This document shows positions 6,621 to 44,115 of a stretch of 64,000 nt of DNA, in pieces. Below the pieces are notes generated by a model. It was not told the origin of the DNA, made no database searches, and saw only the letters and a program-made list of their open reading frames with translations. The stretch spans positions 32,001 through 96,000 of the IMG/VR virus record IMGVR_UViG_3300025914_000009, one strand, 5' to 3'. A program made the position numbers and the translations under genes. The stretch comes from a virus. Positions within the stretch are counted from its first letter, which is position 1. Every line of letters starts with the position of its first letter.

Positions 6621-7889
6621 TTATTGGGAAAACCAAGATTTGGGTTGAGCTTCTTCCTCTGTCTTCTTATTACCACCAGTTTTCATGGCAGTCTTCTTAA
6701 GACCTTTGAAGAGTTCATTACTTTCTTTAGATACTGCCTTTTTGGCTAATTTCGTAAGTTGAGGATCTTCTTTCAAAAGTTGCATAAGCATAGCTACTTT
6801 AACTCTAAGTTCGTGATTTTCAGGTCTCTTCAGATCCATTATATCCTTGTCAAAAGTTGTAAGTAGTTCCCCATCGGGGGTTTGGAATCTGTCCTGGGTG
6901 AGATAGGCATATGTATTCTCAGCGAACTTCTTATCTACAGGGATTCCATCAAAATCTTTATTTTTCATCTTATCAGAAAGGATTCTGCCAACATTGTTGA
7001 CATACTCAGTTTTGATCTGCTGCTTTCTGGTAATTTCTTCTTGCTTTCTGGCTGCGGCCTCTGTGATTTCCTTTTCCTCTTTGGCTACCAGGATCTTTTG
7101 AGCTTCTGTAGCTTCATCGAGTAAGTCATTATAATTCTTTAGCTGAGTAACTCTTTTCTCGATATATTCAGAAGATCTACCTTCTGATCTGTACAACTCT
7201 CTCACAATTCTTTCCTGATTACCTTCATCGGTAAGGTCAATTTCTTTGATACCTTCTACTTTAGTATAGCGGCTCAGATAGTCAACTGGGTTAATACCTT
7301 TTACAAAGACATTTTCAAACATGTCCTTATAATTATCGCCAAACCTTGCAAGGAACTTATCTATTACTTGGGAAGCTTGCTTTCTTGATTCGTACTGGAA
7401 TCTATCGAGCAGTTCTTCCGGAGTACCTACTTCTATACCCTCCTCATCTTCATCGAGATTAAAGATACCATGATTCACAAGCTCTTGAGCTATTGTGTTG
7501 AACATGTTCTCCTCACCCTCTTCAGTAGTAGCTTCTTCCTCTGTTTCCTTAGGGGAATCTTTGGGAGATTTGGCTGGAGGTTTAGTTCCTTCCTCTTCGG
7601 TTTCTTCTGATCTTTCTTCAAGAACATCATAGATATCCTTGTCTTTTATCTCAGGAGTTTCTTCCTCAGTTTCTTCTTCTTCTTCTATAACCTCTTCTTT
7701 CTTCTTTACAGGTGGTTGCTTCTTAACTGCCTTCTTAACAGATACCTCTTCTTCAGTTTCTGTTTTGGAAGGTATTACCTTTATATCTTCAGGATCAGAG
7801 CTAAGGAATGCTTCCCCAGCTTGGATCTCTTCTGTAGACATGATTCCAAAGTCACCTGCAGAGAAAGAAAATTGTTCTCTGTCCGCCAT
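6621..7889 (-). CDS. Putative scaffolding protein
   Basis: Highly acidic, coiled-coil-like 422 aa ORF between portal and MCP. Confidence 0.65.
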   Translation of the reverse strand: MADREQFSFSAGDFGIMSTEEIQAGEAFLSSDPEDIKVIPSKTETEEEVSVKKAVKKQPPVKKKEEVIEEEEETEEETPEIKDKDIYDVLEERSEETEEEGTKPPAKSPKDSPKETEEEATTEEGEENMFNTIAQELVNHGIFNLDEDEEGIEVGTPEELLDRFQYESRKQASQVIDKFLARFGDNYKDMFENVFVKGINPVDYLSRYTKVEGIKEIDLTDEGNQERIVRELYRSEGRSSEYIEKRVTQLKNYNDLLDEATEAQKILVAKEEKEITEAAARKQEEITRKQQIKTEYVNNVGRILSDKMKNKDFDGIPVDKKFAENTYAYLTQDRFQTPDGELLTTFDKDIMDLKRPENHELRVKVAMLMQLLKEDPQLTKLAKKAVSKESNELFKGLKKTAMKTGGNKKTEEEAQPKSWFSQ

Positions 7890-8329: not shown

Positions 8330-10917
8330 TATTTAGATTTTGATTTCTTTGCCTGGGCCTTCTTAGCCTTGATATCCATTCTCTTCATCTGGAGCTGAGC
8401 TTGGATTTTCTCCTTATCTAGCGCGATCTTTCTGAGCTCCATCGCAATATAATCATTCGACTCTTTGGCCTTCTGCTGGATTTGAGATAGTTTAAGTTGG
8501 TATTCCCTATCCTTACCAATGCTTTCTTGTGTAAGTCTATTAGCTTCTGCGATATCTTCATCTCCTGCATTTTCAATTGGGTTCATTGCACTTCTTTCTT
8601 TGGCTGCTGCTGCTATTAGAGCAATCTCCTTCTTATTAAGTCTATCCAGCTCATTTTGCCCGGCTTCAAATTCTTTATCTAATTGATCCTGGATGGCTGC
8701 CTGTTCCTGCTCATGCTGGAACATAGCTTGCTGCTGCTGTTGATCCTGTTGCTTAAGCTGTTGTTCTTGTTGCTGCATTGCTTCCATTTTCTCCTTTAAG
8801 GACTTGAATACTTGCTTCATTGTCCTGATAGAGTTGGTAGTATATAGTACAGATATTTCATATGGAGTAGCTCCATTCTGTAGCATTGGTTGAGCAAGCT
8901 GTCTGAGATCTTCAAAGGCTTTTTGATCCTGGGCTCTGGTAGTAACAAATACCTGTAGATCCCTAAGGGTGATGTCTTCAGAGTTAACTCTAATGAAGGC
9001 TTGTTCTCCTTCTGTATTGATATAGGAAATGGTTGACTCTGGTTTCTTTACTTCTATATGCTGAACTGCATCCAGAATAGCTTGATATACATCATTTAAT
9101 ACATACTCATGTTGTGCAAAGTATGGTTCTGTCTGAGCATAGGATTGAGATAAGGCAGTATTTGTACCTGTAGCAGTTTGAGTTGCAGCTACTCCACCTG
9201 TTCTTTCTCTGGTAATACCTACCAGTTCCCATGCTTCCTGTTTAAGCTGCATAGCCAGAGTGTATCTGCTTTGGATTTCAGCAGTCCTTGTCCAGTCTAT
9301 ATTCTTAAACATGTTGAAGTTAGATGGACTCTTCAGGTTTTCAGGAGAGTCATCTACTATAACAACCCCTCTTTTTCTGGCCTCCTGCTCCCAGATATCC
9401 AGTGCATCCTGAGCATCCCCATCCTTAGGGATAGGAATGTGCCTCATAGACATAAGGTACACATTACCAATTTCCTTCTCCAGCAGCTTATAGAGCTGGT
9501 TCATACATACATTGTACAGAATCTGATAAGGTTTTAGTAGGTCAATTAAGCTCTTAGCTTCATTTATGTTCTTGATCTCATGAACTACTCCAATAATAGG
9601 GCAGTAGTTCAGAAGTTCAAAGGGCTCCACATTATATACATCAGATCCAATCTTGTAGCCTTTATACCATTGGTTTATATAGTTCCACTCGATTGATACC
9701 TGGTTTGGTACTCTCTTATAAGACTCATCTACTAAAGTGGTCTGTTCTACTCCCTCTTCGTCCTTAAATATCAGTCTCCCCACTTTCTTTTTTGAGCACC
9801 AATAGGCTTGAACTACTACATACTTATTACCAAAAGTATTTACATTGGATGATAAGCCAAGAAAGTCATTAAGAGGATCCACGTTCTCTTTGAGCATTGA
9901 CTCAACCAGAAGTCTTTGTTGTACTATAAATGGGGAATAAGTATCATATTTGATTGATTCCCATCCACTTACGTTAGGATTCTCAAAGTTCGATTCCCTT
10001 GGGGAGAATAGAGAGAGTTCTCTTACACCTTTTCTTAAGTGATCAATCTCTTTCTTATCCAGATCAAATCTCTCAATAATCTCACTAAGCTCCATTACAT
10101 GCACTGTCCCTGCAGCAAAGGCATCTTTAAGATACTTCTTATCAGGAAGAGTCAAGAACCATACATTCTTTGGGTTTAGATTTTCTACTCCTACCCCCAG
10201 CTTTGAGTTAGTCTCATATATGTGATAGAACTCTCTTGAGCAGATTAAAAGATCTCTAAAGCAATCTTCTGAGATCTCCTTCATGTTCATCTGCATCTTC
10301 ATGGCTTCCAAAACATGATTTCCCCATTTCTCTGCAGTAGAAGTATAGTCAGTCAGATACTCTGATACCTTCTCCATTGTAAGTTGTTCCAGATCCTGAT
10401 CATTAGAAGGACTGCCTTGTCCTTGTACTCCTGACTGAACAGCAATCTTAGACTTAGCTTGTTCCATTATGAATTGCTGTAATATCTCAGTCTTGAATTG
10501 AAGCTCCTCATTTTTTGAATCATCATCAAAAGCCTTAACCCTAGCTACATCTGGTCTTCTTGTAAGCTCTCCTAACATGGTATTCATAGGAGGGTTTAAG
10601 ATAGGATAGTGCTTCACATAGTTAGGGAGTTCTACATCTCTTACTACTGTATCTGCAAAGGATCTAAGTTCAGGATCATCTGTATCATTAATATAGAAAT
10701 CCTGTGGTCTGAGAATCCCCTTTACCAGGTTATAGTTATTTACAAAGGTATCTTTACCTTTAATAAATTGAGAGTAGGCCACATTGGCAAAGTAGTCCAT
10801 ATTGGACTTTATCCAGTCATCTGTTCCTTTCTCTGCTTCTGGTACGAACTGATCAGGATAAATGTTCCACCTTGCCCAGTCAAGGTTCTGATCCTTTGAG
10901 TGAATGATTATAGGCAT
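8329..10917 (-). CDS. Portal protein
   Basis: 862 aa directly after terminase, Gln-rich coiled-coil C-terminus typical of podovirus/crAss portals. Confidence 0.85.
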   Translation of the reverse strand: MPIIIHSKDQNLDWARWNIYPDQFVPEAEKGTDDWIKSNMDYFANVAYSQFIKGKDTFVNNYNLVKGILRPQDFYINDTDDPELRSFADTVVRDVELPNYVKHYPILNPPMNTMLGELTRRPDVARVKAFDDDSKNEELQFKTEILQQFIMEQAKSKIAVQSGVQGQGSPSNDQDLEQLTMEKVSEYLTDYTSTAEKWGNHVLEAMKMQMNMKEISEDCFRDLLICSREFYHIYETNSKLGVGVENLNPKNVWFLTLPDKKYLKDAFAAGTVHVMELSEIIERFDLDKKEIDHLRKGVRELSLFSPRESNFENPNVSGWESIKYDTYSPFIVQQRLLVESMLKENVDPLNDFLGLSSNVNTFGNKYVVVQAYWCSKKKVGRLIFKDEEGVEQTTLVDESYKRVPNQVSIEWNYINQWYKGYKIGSDVYNVEPFELLNYCPIIGVVHEIKNINEAKSLIDLLKPYQILYNVCMNQLYKLLEKEIGNVYLMSMRHIPIPKDGDAQDALDIWEQEARKRGVVIVDDSPENLKSPSNFNMFKNIDWTRTAEIQSRYTLAMQLKQEAWELVGITRERTGGVAATQTATGTNTALSQSYAQTEPYFAQHEYVLNDVYQAILDAVQHIEVKKPESTISYINTEGEQAFIRVNSEDITLRDLQVFVTTRAQDQKAFEDLRQLAQPMLQNGATPYEISVLYTTNSIRTMKQVFKSLKEKMEAMQQQEQQLKQQDQQQQQAMFQHEQEQAAIQDQLDKEFEAGQNELDRLNKKEIALIAAAAKERSAMNPIENAGDEDIAEANRLTQESIGKDREYQLKLSQIQQKAKESNDYIAMELRKIALDKEKIQAQLQMKRMDIKAKKAQAKKSKSK

Positions 10918-14988: not shown

Positions 14989-15098
14989 GTAGCTTGGTTT
15001 TCTTTTACAAAGTTATGGGCTTTTTTGGAAGTAATATATAACTCTTTGGGATGTAATGCTATAAAAAGCAAAAATCCTCCCAATATGAGAGGATCTTG

Positions 15099-15173: not shown

Positions 15174-15249
15174 TGCACGTATCGGGGGAATCGAACCCAG
15201 TCCTCCTACAGTTTTGGAGACTGCTTGGCCACCATGGCCTGACACGTGT
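15174..15249 (-). tRNA. tRNA-Trp(CCA)
   Basis: Loop CT-CCA-AA. Confidence 0.85.
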
Positions 15250-15715: not shown

Positions 15716-15752
15716 TAAAAGAAAAACCCCCAGTCTTGGTAGAAAGGGGGTT
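15716..15752 (-). terminator. Attenuator terminator of tRNA operon A
   Basis: AACCCCC...GGGGGTT followed by TTTCTTTT between leader ORF and first tRNA. Confidence 0.8.
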
Positions 15753-15773
15753 GACATGCAAGAGCTTTATATC

Positions 15774-15848
15774 CTATACATACATGACAACTCCCTTCCC
15801 TGGTTGAGGGCAGAAGGTAAACCACGTATGACGAAATACTTTATTCAT
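15774..15848 (-). CDS. Leader peptide A (MNKVFRHTWFTFCPQPGKGVVMYV)
   Basis: 24 aa ORF just after promoter; codons 5-16 use only F,R,H,T,W,C,P,Q, the downstream tRNA set. Confidence 0.85.
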   Translation of the reverse strand: MNKVFRHTWFTFCPQPGKGVVMYV

Positions 15849-15852
15849 AATG

Positions 15853-15884
15853 CAAATATATGGTGAATATTTTAATCCACCAAA
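15853..15884 (-). promoter_or_regulatory. Bacteroidota sigmaA promoter, tRNA operon A
   Basis: TTTG-N20-TATATTTG. Confidence 0.85.
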
Positions 15885-16065: not shown

Positions 16066-16072
16066 TTATAAG

Positions 16073-16165
16073 AGGAAGGCTGAGGACTCGAACCCCACTC
16101 CTGCTCATCGCCGAGCCCTAGTTTTCAAGACTAGTCGCCGCTCCTGTGCAGCTGCATAACCTTCC
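16073..16165 (-). tRNA. tRNA-Ser(TGA)
   Basis: CTAGT CT-TGA-AA ACTAG, long variable arm. Confidence 0.88.
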
Positions 16166-16171
16166 TTATAG

Positions 16172-16245
16172 TATCCCTGGTAGGACTTGAACCTACAGAA
16201 CTCAGATTTTAAGTCTGATATGGTTACCTATTACATCACAGGGAT
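16172..16245 (-). tRNA. tRNA-Leu(TAA), short variable arm
   Basis: TCAGA CT-TAA-AA TCTGA. Confidence 0.85.
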
Positions 16246-16250
16246 AAGTG

Positions 16251-16323
16251 TACCGAGGATGGGATTCGAACCCACACTTTTCAGTTCCTAAGACTGTTGC
16301 CTCTCCCGTTGGGCTACCAAGGT
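16251..16323 (-). tRNA. tRNA-Leu(TAG), short variable arm
   Basis: Loop CT-TAG-GA. Confidence 0.85.
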
Positions 16324-16327
16324 ATGT

Positions 16328-16363
16328 AAAACAAAAAACCCAGCTGTAGAAACAGACTGGGCT
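16328..16363 (-). terminator. Attenuator terminator of tRNA operon B
   Basis: GCCCAGTCTGTTTCTACAGCTGGGTTTTTTG on minus strand. Confidence 0.8.
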
Positions 16364-16385
16364 AAAAAATAAAGTCTAATGAACT

Positions 16386-16454
16386 TTACATACTATACCC
16401 AGCCTGTCTGTGTAACAGGAGTGAACTGGAATAGTATGATAGAAGATTGAACAT
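16386..16454 (-). CDS. Leader peptide B (MFNLLSYYSSSLLLHRQAGYSM)
   Basis: 22 aa ORF just after promoter; codons 4-14 are only Leu/Ser/Tyr, the downstream tRNA set. Confidence 0.85.
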   Translation of the reverse strand: MFNLLSYYSSSLLLHRQAGYSM

Positions 16455-16458
16455 GATG

Positions 16459-16490
16459 CAAATGTAATAACTCTTTTTGAATTTTCCAAA
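16459..16490 (-). promoter_or_regulatory. Bacteroidota sigmaA promoter, tRNA operon B
   Basis: TTTG-N20-TACATTTG. Confidence 0.85.
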
Positions 16491-16499
16491 TAATTCTAG

Positions 16500-16573
16500 T
16501 GGAGCTAAAGAGAATCGAACTCTTCTCAGGCTCCTTGCAAGGGAGCTTCGCCAGCCTTGGAACATGTAACCCC
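16500..16573 (-). tRNA. tRNA-Ala(TGC)
   Basis: GCTCC CT-TGC-AA GGAGC; G3:U70 present. Confidence 0.9.
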
Positions 16574-16679
16574 TAAATCTGAAGCATAACCTTTCTACCT
16601 TCTCTGTAAACAGCTTTATTACAGTTATGAAATTGTATACCAGTAGATTGTACATGCTCCAGAGGTTCTTTCAAACCAG

Positions 16680-16752
16680 TTGCCTGAGGTGGGATCGAAC
16701 CACCAGCCTTCTTCGTATCAGGAAGTTGCTCAGACCATTGAGCTACCAGGCA
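16680..16752 (-). tRNA. tRNA-Ile(GAT)
   Basis: Loop CT-GAT-AC. Confidence 0.88.
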
Positions 16753-16844
16753 ATTTGATATAGGGGAAGAGGTGGTTCTTACACAGCCCACCTTCAGAAG
16801 TGTGCTTCTTCCAGGTTTTCACCCTCCCCCACTATATCTTCTAG

Positions 16845-16918
16845 TTGTCCCTAAGGGAGTTGAACCCTTGATCTTCTCATTATGAGTGAGCTGCTCTGAC
16901 CACCTGAGCTAAGGGACG
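16845..16918 (-). tRNA. tRNA with CAT anticodon, probably Ile2 (lysidine type)
   Basis: Loop CT-CAT-AA; body CCCTTAGCTCAG..GGTCAGAGCAG resembles bacterial Ile2; leader C contains an ATA codon. Confidence 0.75.
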
Positions 16919-16925
16919 ATTTGAG

Positions 16926-16998
16926 CCGAGAGTGGGGGATTCGAACCCCAACCTTCACCTTGACAGGGTGATACTGCAGCCATTACACCACACCCTCG
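16926..16998 (-). tRNA. tRNA-Asp(GTC)
   Basis: TCACC CT-GTC-AA GGTGA; ends approximate. Confidence 0.85.
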
Positions 16999-17087
16999 GA
17001 TTAGCCACATGCCGGACAATTACTTGACTGCTGTTAGAAACCAGCTGGTTTCCATCTTTTTTGTCCGCATGTAGCTTTAATTATTTG

Positions 17088-17161
17088 TACTCCCAGTGGG
17101 AATTGAACCCTACATTTTTACCTTGAAAGGGTAATGTCCTTACCATTTAGACGATGGGAGC
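17088..17161 (-). tRNA. tRNA-Glu(TTC)
   Basis: TTACC CT-TTC-AA GGTAA. Confidence 0.9.
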
Positions 17162-17182
17162 ATAGCTCCTCACCCTCCTTTA

Positions 17183-17395
17183 TTACATTAGCCATCTTAT
17201 CAATAGTTTAGCCTCCATTACTGGAAGAAATTTCGCATCCTGTATGTCCCCCAGGGGAATGGAGAAATTAATGATTCCATCAATAGAACCTGTCCAAAGG
17301 TTAGTCATGTACAGCATCCTTTCTTTATCCACATACAAAAGCTCAGCCTTTGGATTTTTCTTATACAACTCCTTTTTAATTTCATTTAGTTCCAT
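17183..17395 (-). CDS. Hypothetical protein inside tRNA operon C
   Basis: MELNEIKKELYK...; start taken just after tRNA-Gly. Confidence 0.65.
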   Translation of the reverse strand: MELNEIKKELYKKNPKAELLYVDKERMLYMTNLWTGSIDGIINFSIPLGDIQDAKFLPVMEAKLLIRWLM

Positions 17396-17396
17396 G

Positions 17397-17467
17397 AGCA
17401 CCAACAGGGAGTCGAACCCTGCTCTCAGGCTTGGAAGGCTAGTGCATTACCGAAATGCTTCTGGTGC
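17397..17467 (-). tRNA. tRNA-Gly(TCC)
   Basis: Loop CT-TCC-AA. Confidence 0.85.
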
Positions 17468-17518
17468 ATAGAGGGGGACAGGTTATTTAATCCTTTAAGG
17501 GACTCCCCCAGACCCTGG

Positions 17519-17593
17519 TTGCGGGAGAGGGAATCGAACCCTCGTAGTTCAGCTTATGAGACTGAGCTGGCACCATCTCCAGTCTACCCCGCA
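17519..17593 (-). tRNA. tRNA-Met(CAT)
   Basis: TCAGT CT-CAT-AA GCTGA; fMet-like acceptor TGCGGGG but no triple G-C anticodon stem. Confidence 0.8.
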
Positions 17594-17841
17594 ATCTTTA
17601 ATTGTTTCTTTTCCTCCTCTGTCAAATCATAATCCTCTTTTACCAAAGTCAAAATTAAGTTAAGTTCCTCAGCAAATCTAATTCTTCCTCTAAAGACTAT
17701 TTCATCAAACCTCTTATTTCTGATAGACACTATACTAAAATCATGAGAGTCATTTTTTAATATAGTTATCTGATAAGAATCATCATGAAACTGCCATGGC
17801 AACCTCTGCTCGAAACCTAGTTCTAACAAGTGCTCTTTCAT
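17584..17841 (-). CDS. Hypothetical protein inside tRNA operon C
   Basis: 85 aa ORF between tRNA-Asn and tRNA-Met. Confidence 0.6.
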   Translation of the reverse strand: MKEHLLELGFEQRLPWQFHDDSYQITILKNDSHDFSIVSIRNKRFDEIVFRGRIRFAEELNLILTLVKEDYDLTEEEKKQLKIAG

Positions 17842-17842
17842 G

Positions 17843-17915
17843 AGGACAGTTTAGGGATCGAACCTAAGACCTAAGAGTTAACAGCTCTTTGCTACTGCCA
17901 CTGAGCTAACTGTCC
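17843..17915 (-). tRNA. tRNA-Asn(GTT)
   Basis: AAGAG CT-GTT-AA CTCTT. Confidence 0.9.
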
Positions 17916-17959
17916 ATTTCCAGTTTTGTACTCCACGCAGATACTGGTAAACTGACCTG

Positions 17960-18031
17960 AGGACTTACAAGGAATCCAACCTTGATAGCTTGCTTAGAAG
18001 GCAAGAGCTCTATGCATTGAGCTATAAGTCC
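17960..18031 (-). tRNA. tRNA-Arg(TCT)
   Basis: CTTGC CT-TCT-AA GCAAG. Confidence 0.88.
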
Positions 18032-18034
18032 ATG

Positions 18035-18107
18035 TTGTCCCACTTAGAATCGAACTAAGGTCGCTAGTTTGTAAGACTAGAGCACTCAACCACTGTGCTA
18101 TAGGACA
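18035..18107 (-). tRNA. tRNA-Val(TAC)
   Basis: CTAGT CT-TAC-AA ACTAG. Confidence 0.9.
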
Positions 18108-18113
18108 ATCTTG

Positions 18114-18185
18114 TTCCCCTGGAAGGGCTCGAACCTTCAACCTTCTCCTTAAGAGGGAGTAGCTCTACCATTAAGCTACAGAGGA
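18114..18185 (-). tRNA. tRNA-Lys(CTT)
   Basis: Loop CT-CTT-AA. Confidence 0.88.
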
Positions 18186-18197
18186 ATTTTATCTCTG

Positions 18198-18268
18198 TAC
18201 CCCCACCAAGGATCGAACTTGGTTCCACTGGTTAAAAGCCAGTTACTTCACCATAAAGCTTTGAGGGT
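18198..18268 (-). tRNA. tRNA-Lys(TTT)
   Basis: ACTGG CT-TTT-AA CCAGT. Confidence 0.88.
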
Positions 18269-18274
18269 AATTGT

Positions 18275-18312
18275 AAACAAAAATCCCCAGAGCTTATGGG
18301 CTCCAGGGACTC
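18275..18312 (-). terminator. Attenuator terminator of tRNA operon C
   Basis: GAGTCCCTGGAGC-CCATAA-GCTCTGGGGA-TTTTTG. Confidence 0.8.
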
Positions 18313-18334
18313 TTGTTTGCTGTTTATAAACCTG

Positions 18335-18415
18335 TTAATTAGCAGACAGTGGAATCCCTGGAGCAGATTTCTCTGCACCTCTTACAATCCCATTATCCAC
18401 TATTGAGTAAAACAT
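18335..18415 (-). CDS. Leader peptide C (MFYSIVDNGIVRGAEKSAPGIPLSAN)
   Basis: 26 aa ORF after promoter; codons 5-16 use only I,V,D,N,G,R(AGA),A,E,K, the downstream tRNA set. Confidence 0.85.
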   Translation of the reverse strand: MFYSIVDNGIVRGAEKSAPGIPLSAN

Positions 18416-18438
18416 TGTTTGCTTTTTTAAGATTTTAG

Positions 18439-18470
18439 CAAATATAATACCACTTTTTGACATGGCCAAA
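18439..18470 (-). promoter_or_regulatory. Bacteroidota sigmaA promoter, tRNA operon C
   Basis: TTTG-N20-TATATTTG. Confidence 0.85.
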
Positions 18471-18478
18471 TAATTCCA

Positions 18479-18898
18479 CTACTTTTTTTCTCCTAGCTCC
18501 CCTGGGGAAGATAGCTGATTAGAGTCACAAATTATACCCAGGACTGGCTGACCTATCTTCCCTGAACTCTGCCTCTTCTCCATAAACTCATCCAGCTTAG
18601 CTTCAAACTTCTTCCTTGGCCAGGTACACACAAACTCTCCATACATATCACTGACCACAATAGTCAGATCAAATCCTCCTTCAGCTACCTCCTCTACCTT
18701 CCTCTCTCTGGAAAATCCATCATGCCACATAAGCTTATGAAGATCTCTGGCAGGTATCCTAACCCAACCAGTAATCCAATCTATTGGCACAGGCTCCTCA
18801 GTAGTATCTTTATCTTCCTGTTCCATAGCCTTCTTAACAGAGAATCCATCATATATCTTCATAGGAAAGCTAAAGAACTCTTCAGTGAATTTACCCAT
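18479..18898 (-). CDS. Hypothetical protein
   Basis: 139 aa ORF with its own promoter. Confidence 0.7.
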   Translation of the reverse strand: MGKFTEEFFSFPMKIYDGFSVKKAMEQEDKDTTEEPVPIDWITGWVRIPARDLHKLMWHDGFSRERKVEEVAEGGFDLTIVVSDMYGEFVCTWPRKKFEAKLDEFMEKRQSSGKIGQPVLGIICDSNQLSSPGELGEKK

Positions 18899-18913: not shown

Positions 18914-18945
18914 CAAAGGTAATACGTTATAGTGGAATTTCCAAA
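18914..18945 (-). promoter_or_regulatory. Bacteroidota sigmaA promoter
   Basis: TTTG-N20-TACCTTTG. Confidence 0.8.
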
Positions 18946-27590: not shown

Positions 27591-27663
27591 GGGTGTGTAG
27601 CTCAATGGATAGAGTGTCTGACTTCGGATCAGAAAGTTAAGGGTTCGAATCCCTTCATGCCCA
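27591..27663 (+). tRNA. tRNA-Arg(TCG)
   Basis: Canonical cloverleaf, TCTGA CT-TCG-GA TCAGA. Confidence 0.92.
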
Positions 27664-27855
27664 CAGGTTTTATGGCTAATGGTGTTTGATTAGTATTGCA
27701 AGAATTTAGCAATAATCAGTACTATTAAACGCGCCCTGAGTTTCTACTTGGGGCTCTTTTTTATTAACAAACTTAGTTTTTTTTTTAGAGCATATAATCG
27801 TTAGAGCCCTCTTGTGTCTACAGGAGGGCATTTTTAACCAAAAAAACCAAAAATT

Positions 27856-44008: not shown

Positions 44009-44102
44009 GGCGAAGTATGCAAATTGGTAAAGCAGTCCTCGTTGAGAGGATGGGACTAAATTCTGGGTAATGTCCATGGTAGTTCGAATCTATCCCTCGC
44101 CA
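44009..44102 (+). ncRNA. Leu-type tRNA-like RNA with non-canonical anticodon loop
   Basis: Acceptor GGCGAAG/CCTCGCC, D loop AAATTGGTAAA, long variable arm, loop CGTTGAG lacks U33. Confidence 0.6.
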
Positions 44103-44115
44103 CTAAAATTCTTTT

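Follow-up and report, generated by a model that had tools for sequence, protein, structure and literature searches.

The 64,000-nucleotide (nt) stretch analysed here, referred to as the window, comprises bases 32001-96000 of the 124,983-base-pair virus record IMGVR_UViG_3300025914_000009. A 210-nt gap on its minus strand, between a gene for a 139-amino-acid (aa) protein (18898..18479) and the first gene of a transfer RNA (tRNA) array, Lys(TTT), holds a putative regulatory leader termed leader C. From 18470 to 18279 this leader contains, in order, a promoter, a 26-codon open reading frame (ORF), an antiterminator helix and an intrinsic terminator, and 12 tRNA genes follow. These form block C (16499..18268), the set of genes that leader C would control, with two small ORFs lying between them. 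Their order is Lys(TTT), Lys(CTT), Val(TAC), Arg(TCT), Asn(GTT), Met(CAT), Gly(TCC), Glu(TTC), Asp(GTC), a CAT tRNA that is a candidate Ile2, Ile(GAT) and Ala(TGC). The 12-tRNA operon of the original prediction, which was made from the sequence of the window, holds without reservation for 11 genes, found by ARAGORN at its default setting (18268 to 16679). A relaxed threshold is needed to detect the twelfth, Ala(TGC) (16573..16499), which was also seen as a weak match of transfer-messenger RNA type. Two sister leaders in the same window, B and A, precede the two other tRNA blocks of the array. Features are on the minus strand unless stated otherwise.

The promoter-like site of leader C (18439..18470) was recognized by its sequence pattern, TTTG-N20-TATATTTG, which is of the Bacteroidota type. 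The strict form of this pattern, TTTG-N18-21-TAnnTTTG, matches at four places in the 64 kb, each time on the minus strand, against 1.56 expected; four were reached in 5 of 100 shuffles. The matches precede leader A (15853-15884), leader B (16459-16490), leader C (18439-18470) and the 139-aa gene (18914-18945). As the strict pattern has no other match in the window, host polymerase may transcribe nothing there apart from the tRNA region and the 139-aa gene. Promoters B and C have a 39-nt stretch in common, with 82% identity. A scan for sigma-70-type promoters was uninformative (12 sites against 11.9 expected), and the leader terminators are absent from the list of the terminator scan run with it.

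Since the -7 box ends at 18439, the ATG at 18415, which is the first to follow it, is the most likely start of the leader ORF, giving a length of 26 codons (18335..18415; MFYSIVDNGIVRGAEKSAPGIPLSAN). This ATG is preceded by an A-rich stretch, and the stop codon, TAA, lies at 18337..18335. Codons 5-16 (IVDNGIVRGAEK, 18368..18403) form the regulatory codon run. They read ATA GTG GAT AAT GGG ATT GTA AGA GGT GCA GAG AAA, in frame at 18403..18368, as first described, and the proposed mapping of codons onto tRNAs is borne out, with all 12 specifying amino acids carried by the downstream block. The match extends to the isoacceptor class of the downstream tRNAs (12/12). Grouped by the tRNA block that carries the amino acid, codons fall into class C (K, V, N, M, G, E, D, I, A and Arg-AGR), class B (L, S and Y) and class A (P, T, F, Q, H, W, C and Arg-CGN), with shares of 0.579, 0.186 and 0.235, respectively, in 38 long ORFs of the window. 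Among the 448 ATG-initiated ORFs of 15-40 codons in the window, leader C alone has a class-C run of 12 or more codons; the next best has 10.

Related DNA was searched as loci, which gave 16 in total (one viral and 15 from metagenomes). These include leader-identical duplicates (L004 = L005, and L007 = L008 = L009), and L011-L015 and L018, which lack the leader or the tRNA region, were left out for leader C. Scans of viral contigs with DNA patterns added L020 and L023; one further pattern had no matches, and another pattern-scan match, L025, was dropped as a chance occurrence because it has no tRNAs and a different context. In all nine distinct loci a homologous gene or a promoter is followed by the leader ORF and then by the tRNA array in the same order, and the order of the block C tRNAs after the leader is kept. 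The leader C peptides of the related loci are MYYSIVDNGIMRGAEKSAPGVSLSTM (L003), MLHSIVDNGIIRGAEKSALGVLFLLD (L006), MFYSIVDNGMIRGAEKSAPGILFI (L017), MLHSYMIVDNGINLRGAEKSASGFLLSDIIV (L023), MYSSYIVVDNGMARGIEKDGSGILLSDTELI (L020), MFSFIVVDNGINARGNEKKASGVSVLSKKKKRKKGY (L004), MYRIIGVDRVINARGNEKKASGVHLLS (L008) and MYQIIGVDNIERAMGKKALGVQLLSRRDFTS (L010). Homologous codon runs are 8-18 codons long across the nine loci. The sequence of the core varies (VRGAEK, NARGNEKK, MARGIEKDG, ERAMGKK) and yet keeps its codon class, with L023 as the one exception. The promoter upstream of the leader ORF is kept in eight of the nine loci, and L023 has a variant -7 box.

The leader RNA can be divided into four regions. 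Region 1 (18384..18402), placed by RNAfold as the 5' arm of a candidate protector helix (1:2), overlaps the regulatory codons. Region 2 (18340..18367) may pair with either region 1 or region 3, and holds the antiterminator arm GCTCCAGGGATTC (18364..18352), which lies inside the ORF at codons 18-22. Region 3 (18300..18312; GAGTCCCTGGAGC) is both the partner of this arm and the 5' arm of the terminator. Region 4 (18279..18293) consists of the terminator 3' arm GCTCTGGGG (18293..18285), an A and five U (18283..18279). The pairing between leader and terminator arm was originally given as 13 base pairs, and GCTCCAGGGATTC does pair with GAGTCCCTGGAGC over this length, by 12 Watson-Crick pairs and one G-U pair. 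The terminator (18314..18279) has the sequence CCCTGGAGC-CCATAA-GCTCTGGGG-ATTTTT and a folding energy of -21.0 kcal/mol; the corresponding hairpins of all nine loci range from -19.4 to -22.1 kcal/mol.

Both the antiterminator and the terminator helix are supported by covariation. In a nine-sequence alignment (A2) with 12 aligned antiterminator pairs (108 cells), 94.4% of cells pair and 8 of the 12 pairs have changed on both sides. The covariation score was met by none of 500 shuffles, and slid controls are 22-62% paired. For the 12 terminator pairs (alignment A3), 94.3% of 106 cells are paired and three pairs have changed on both sides, although L020 is out of register here and was counted against the structure. 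The covariation score was again met by 0/500 shuffles, the count of pairs changed on both sides by 21/500 and a measure of further pair types by 430/500. The protector helix is present in the RNAfold minimum free energy structure of the full leader in all nine loci, so that the regulatory codons are predicted to lie in a helix with region 2. This prediction is at odds with the earlier reading, which saw no protector. In alignment A2 80% of protector cells pair, compared with 36-49% when slid, and its 5' strand is nearly invariant. If formed, this candidate helix would be a protector like that of the trp leader and would give a 1:2 / 2:3 / 3:4 layout.

The effect of a ribosome on this layout was modelled by masking nt -15 to +12 around each codon in the ribosomal A site and computing equilibrium pair probabilities; the model is crude in that it assumes both equilibrium and the footprint and ignores kinetics. 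For leader C of the window the modelled probability of the terminator is 1.00 without a ribosome. It falls to 0.29 or less for stalls at codons 5-14, the only stalls for which it is below 0.5, whereas a ribosome stalled at codons 2-4 or 15-27 leaves it at 0.98-1.00. In all nine leader C homologues the value without a ribosome is at least 0.84, and the positions that flip the switch lie within the matched codon run or no more than two codons upstream of it.

Leader C thus has an ORF behind a promoter, codons that match the products of the downstream genes, a terminator, and an antiterminator that shares a strand with the terminator, which are the parts expected of an attenuator. It is very likely a ribosome-mediated (leader-peptide) transcription attenuator that gates the 12-gene tRNA operon of a crAss-like phage. 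In the mechanism envisaged, host RNA polymerase would start at the Bacteroidota-type promoter and a ribosome would translate the 26-codon leader. With fast decoding of codons 5-16 (Ile-ATA/ATT, Val, Asp, Asn, Gly, Arg-AGA, Ala, Glu and Lys) the ribosome would come to cover region 2, leaving regions 3 and 4 to pair, and transcription would end at the U-run ahead of tRNA-Lys. If any matching charged tRNA were scarce, the ribosome would stall on region 1 with region 2 free, region 2 would pair with region 3 as the antiterminator, and polymerase would enter the tRNA genes. In this way the supply of just those tRNA species that the operon encodes would be under negative feedback, such that the phage probably makes block C tRNAs only when ribosomes read the matching codons slowly. 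Stalling would be the signal, and tRNA depletion its cause, whether by heavy phage demand or by tRNA-cleaving defences of the host. Leaders B and A would act likewise on the other two blocks.

The sister leaders have the same design, one carrying a Leu/Ser/Tyr run and the other FRHTWFTFCPQP. Leader B (16328..16490) consists of its promoter, an ORF (16454..16386; MFNLLSYYSSSLLLHRQAGYSM) and a GC hairpin with a U-run, and is followed by Leu(TAG), Leu(TAA), Ser(TGA), a Ser(GCT)-like element whose anticodon was assigned by eye, and Tyr(GTA). Its 11 of 11 Leu/Ser/Tyr codons are the longest class-B run among the 651 window ORFs of at least 15 codons (next longest 9), with P ~8e-8 for independent and identically distributed (iid) codons. 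Leader A (15716..15884), again composed of a promoter, an ORF (15848..15774; MNKVFRHTWFTFCPQPGKGVVMYV) and a GC hairpin with a U-run, precedes Pro, Thr, Phe, Gln, His, Arg(ACG), Trp and Cys. Its 12 of 12 Pro/Thr/Phe/Gln/His/Arg-CGN/Trp/Cys codons are the longest class-A run among the same 651 ORFs (next longest 7; iid P ~3e-7). Homologues of leader B occur in L003, L008 and L017, and those of leader A in L003, L008, L016, L020 and L023; in the footprint scan leader A switches like leader C in five of six loci. In L008 leaders B and A (7050-7775; 9599-9890) are not located directly behind a promoter. Instead their ATG overlaps the stop codon of an upstream ORF (TAATG), of ~190 aa and 32 aa, respectively, and this overlap suggests that they may be translationally coupled to it.

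An attenuator of this kind could be real and still sense not the particular tRNAs of its operon but general translation capacity or amino-acid supply, as under starvation, ribosome shortage or host shut-off. In the model any slowdown of a ribosome on region 1 acts alike. Classical attenuators answer to charged tRNA, which also drops on amino-acid starvation, and codons 2-4 of leader C (Phe, Tyr and Ser), which belong to other blocks, weigh on the same side. However, the 20 amino acids are split over the three leaders exactly as the tRNAs are split over the three blocks, and where the order is permuted (block A precedes block C in L020 and L023) each leader remains with its own block. Arginine is divided further: all 11 Arg codons of leader C cores are AGR, with Arg(TCT) in block C, and all five of leader A cores are CGY, with Arg(ACG) in block A, even though just 13% of Arg codons in the long ORFs of the phage are CGN. 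This isoacceptor split is not explained by amino-acid sensing and argues that tRNA species are sensed. General sensing is therefore considered improbable.

A less probable alternative still is that the element is a plain terminator, constitutive or leaky, or a processing signal, and that the small ORF is untranslated or incidental and conserved as RNA structure only. Region 1 is strongly conserved in its nucleotides and can pair with region 2, so part of the apparent conservation of the peptide could indeed be conservation of RNA. The leader ORF, however, is open in all nine loci despite indels, with a length of 24-36 codons, and replacements in its core keep the codon class. In the six closest loci, the variable columns of codons 1-16 number 4/16, 4/16 and 8/16 at the first, second and third positions, an excess of third-position variation, whereas in codons 17-26 all positions vary alike (7/10, 7/10 and 7/9), which marks RNA pairing as the constraint there. 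The gap from the stop codon to region 3 is also nearly constant, at 20-25 nt in the nine loci and 22 nt in the window. This pattern suggests that the leader C ORF is translated. A plain terminator would also leave unexplained the promoter located between the upstream gene and the ORF, and the codon runs of the sister leaders (P ~1e-7). An operon that has its own promoter would hardly need such a terminator 10 nt ahead of its first gene unless termination were conditional. The least probable alternative, an action of the leader product in trans, as micro-peptide or as terminated leader small RNA, with tRNA gating secondary, has a precedent in what is reported for peTrpL/rnTrpL of Sinorhizobium, attenuator leaders being capable of functions in trans (PMC7298713, PMC6614838), and would fit the conserved N-terminal two thirds of the peptide, but it is highly improbable given that the peptide is free to vary in its C-terminal third and in its length, that composition and not sequence is conserved, and that the three different peptides have only their design in common.

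Several observations weigh against control of block C by a leader that samples its tRNAs. The composition of leader C on its own is suggestive and not compelling: a run of at least 12 class-C codons in a 25-codon ORF has an iid P of ~0.009, which is only modestly unusual, and longer ORFs of the window reach class-C runs of 13-17. The case beyond chance is made by the conservation in nine loci, the covariation and the two sister leaders. The nine loci are themselves relatives, so their counts are not independent events. Within the run, strict wobble rules do not let tRNA-Gly(UCC) read GGT, which needs four-way wobble at U34 (superwobble), and the run of L023 is interrupted by one Leu codon, CTA. 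Covariation of the protector is not significant, with two pairs changed on both sides and a percentage of paired cells that was met by 31/500 shuffles. As to the footprint model, stalls at codons 15-16 (Glu and Lys) leave the switch unflipped, and an untranslated leader cut before region 4 prefers the antiterminator (0.86), so the default state depends on folding kinetics. Leader A of L008 is antiterminated without a ribosome in this crude equilibrium model, and three of the four leader B homologues (L003, L017 and L008) never flip, although that of the window does.

The ATA codon in the run was originally taken to support an Ile2 identity for the CAT tRNA of block C (16844-16918). A tRNA-Ile2 (anticodon CAU) decodes AUA once its C34 has become lysidine, and carries identity elements for TilS. 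The call gains from the ATA codon, which is present in all nine leader C homologues, and from L008, in which a tRNA-Ile(TAT) fills the slot of the CAT tRNA between Asp and Ile(GAT); it loses in that these two tRNAs have low overall sequence similarity. In an alignment judged by eye (A4), the D-arm of the CAT tRNA resembles that of Ile tRNAs. An Ile2 assignment is plausible and indirectly supported. In the same alignment the 1:72 pair is mismatched or weak in several members of the candidate family (C/A in the window, A/A in L006 and U-A in L017). More generally, leader codons would offer an independent route to assigning functions to odd phage tRNAs such as this one.

The complete array comprises 21 minus-strand tRNA genes at the ARAGORN default setting (18268 to 15098) and 24 tRNAs at the relaxed threshold. 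Ser(TGA) (16165..16072) and Trp(CCA) (15247..15175) are gained together with the Ala(TGC) gene mentioned above, and the Rfam matches of all three are weak. The two tRNA-Leu genes (16171-16245 and 16250-16323) are just 74-75 nt in length and so do not have the long variable arm that bacterial tRNA-Leu usually carries. Directly 3' of tRNA-Cys, the array ends in a terminator-like hairpin with a T-run (15071-15097). Two tRNAs are found outside the array on the plus strand, Arg(TCG) (27591-27664) and Gln(TTG) (44009-44103), the latter unusually long at 95 nt. The small ORFs of block C encode 85 aa (17584-17841, between Asn and Met) and 73 aa (17183-17404, between Gly and Glu), and the related loci have differing insertions at such gaps. 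In L020 (reverse strand), an ORF is inserted between tRNA-Lys(TTT) and tRNA-Lys(CTT). We take its product to be HNH-endonuclease-like, as judged by eye from Cys pairs and an HH-N motif. An ORF inserted between tRNA genes in L021 (4356-4796; phage cr111_1) is annotated as a homing endonuclease.

The terminase and portal ORFs of the window match the crAss-like PHROG families 6681 and 6547. They alone could be named in this way, and no PHROG family was found for the 139-aa, 85-aa, 73-aa and 119-aa ORFs or the leader ORFs. Nucleotide matches of the window to GenBank phages are limited to tRNA-sized pieces, some of them within Crassvirales. The 139-aa protein has 56 homologues; it gave no match in a tblastn search against GenBank phages, and a single-protein scan of viral loci returned none. 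The promoter type together with the crAss-like genes suggests a Bacteroidota host for this crAss-like phage. The DNA runs that contain the window sequence are rhizosphere metagenomes, and two DNA runs may represent the source sample; no RNA run was listed as containing it.

Phage tRNA genes are usually seen as a fixed supplement to codon usage or as decoys against tRNA-cleaving defences. To our knowledge, the control of their expression is largely unknown. We think it likely that the three leaders provide a self-tuning translation supply, in which each tRNA operon is autoregulated by a 'checklist' leader that samples its tRNAs by codon and isoacceptor. A leader that responds to decoding speed would give phages a demand-driven tRNA supply, and could double as a counter-defence sensor that replaces tRNAs depleted by host anticodon nucleases or phage demand. 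The design would also offer a compact natural sensor of tRNA availability with isoacceptor specificity. If correct, this would be the first case in which tRNA genes are under leader-peptide attenuation, with no known attenuator being more multivalent, and would widen the attenuation paradigm from amino-acid biosynthesis to the tRNA pool. Literature searches, whose coverage left out most subscription journals, gave no account of leader-peptide attenuation of tRNA genes. A Phe-rich leader, suspected before the Escherichia coli tRNA-Phe genes pheV and pheU, is absent from the K-12 upstream sequence. In the gut crAss-like phages cr111_1 and cr112_1, a non-systematic inspection by eye found no clear codon-matched leader before the tRNA arrays; the ORF upstream of the array has 13 codons and no U-run terminator in one phage, and just 4 codons in the other. 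Rfam likewise assigned no family, T-box included, at the gathering score in 18260-18480, where the best leader match is His_leader (18.8 bits against a gathering score of 49; E 0.48).

T-box riboswitches also couple tRNA charging to the choice between antiterminator and terminator, by binding uncharged tRNA directly and with no ORF. Leader C would resemble them in a charging-coupled choice of terminator before translation-related genes, and would differ in having a translated ORF as its sensor. In function, leader C and its operon come closest to the trn operon of Anabaena sp. PCC 7120, a plasmid-borne supernumerary tRNA array that is silent until translation is impaired and whose promoter contains direct repeats bound by the repressor TrcR (PMC8421152, PMC10272220). 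It is likewise a stress-induced tRNA array, but one under promoter and TrcR control and on a bacterial plasmid, and in the available text of these two papers the terms 'leader peptide' and 'attenuat' each occur zero times.

The closest structural parallel is with the attenuators of amino-acid operons (PMC1183508, PMC3082878). Like leaders of the trp/his type, leader C has a short ORF behind a promoter, a run of regulatory codons overlapping region 1, mutually exclusive 1:2, 2:3 and 3:4 helices, of which 1:2 is predicted, and a terminator before the first structural gene. Leader-peptide attenuators of amino-acid operons include trpL, hisL and pheL as well as the multivalent thrL and ilvL. In contrast to these, which repeat codons for one to three amino acids and precede genes for biosynthetic enzymes, leader C would control tRNA genes, and its run draws on about ten amino acids that each appear once or twice. 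The phage leaders also differ in the isoacceptor-level match of their codons (Arg AGR versus CGY), and in being phage-borne and present in three copies that partition all 20 amino acids.

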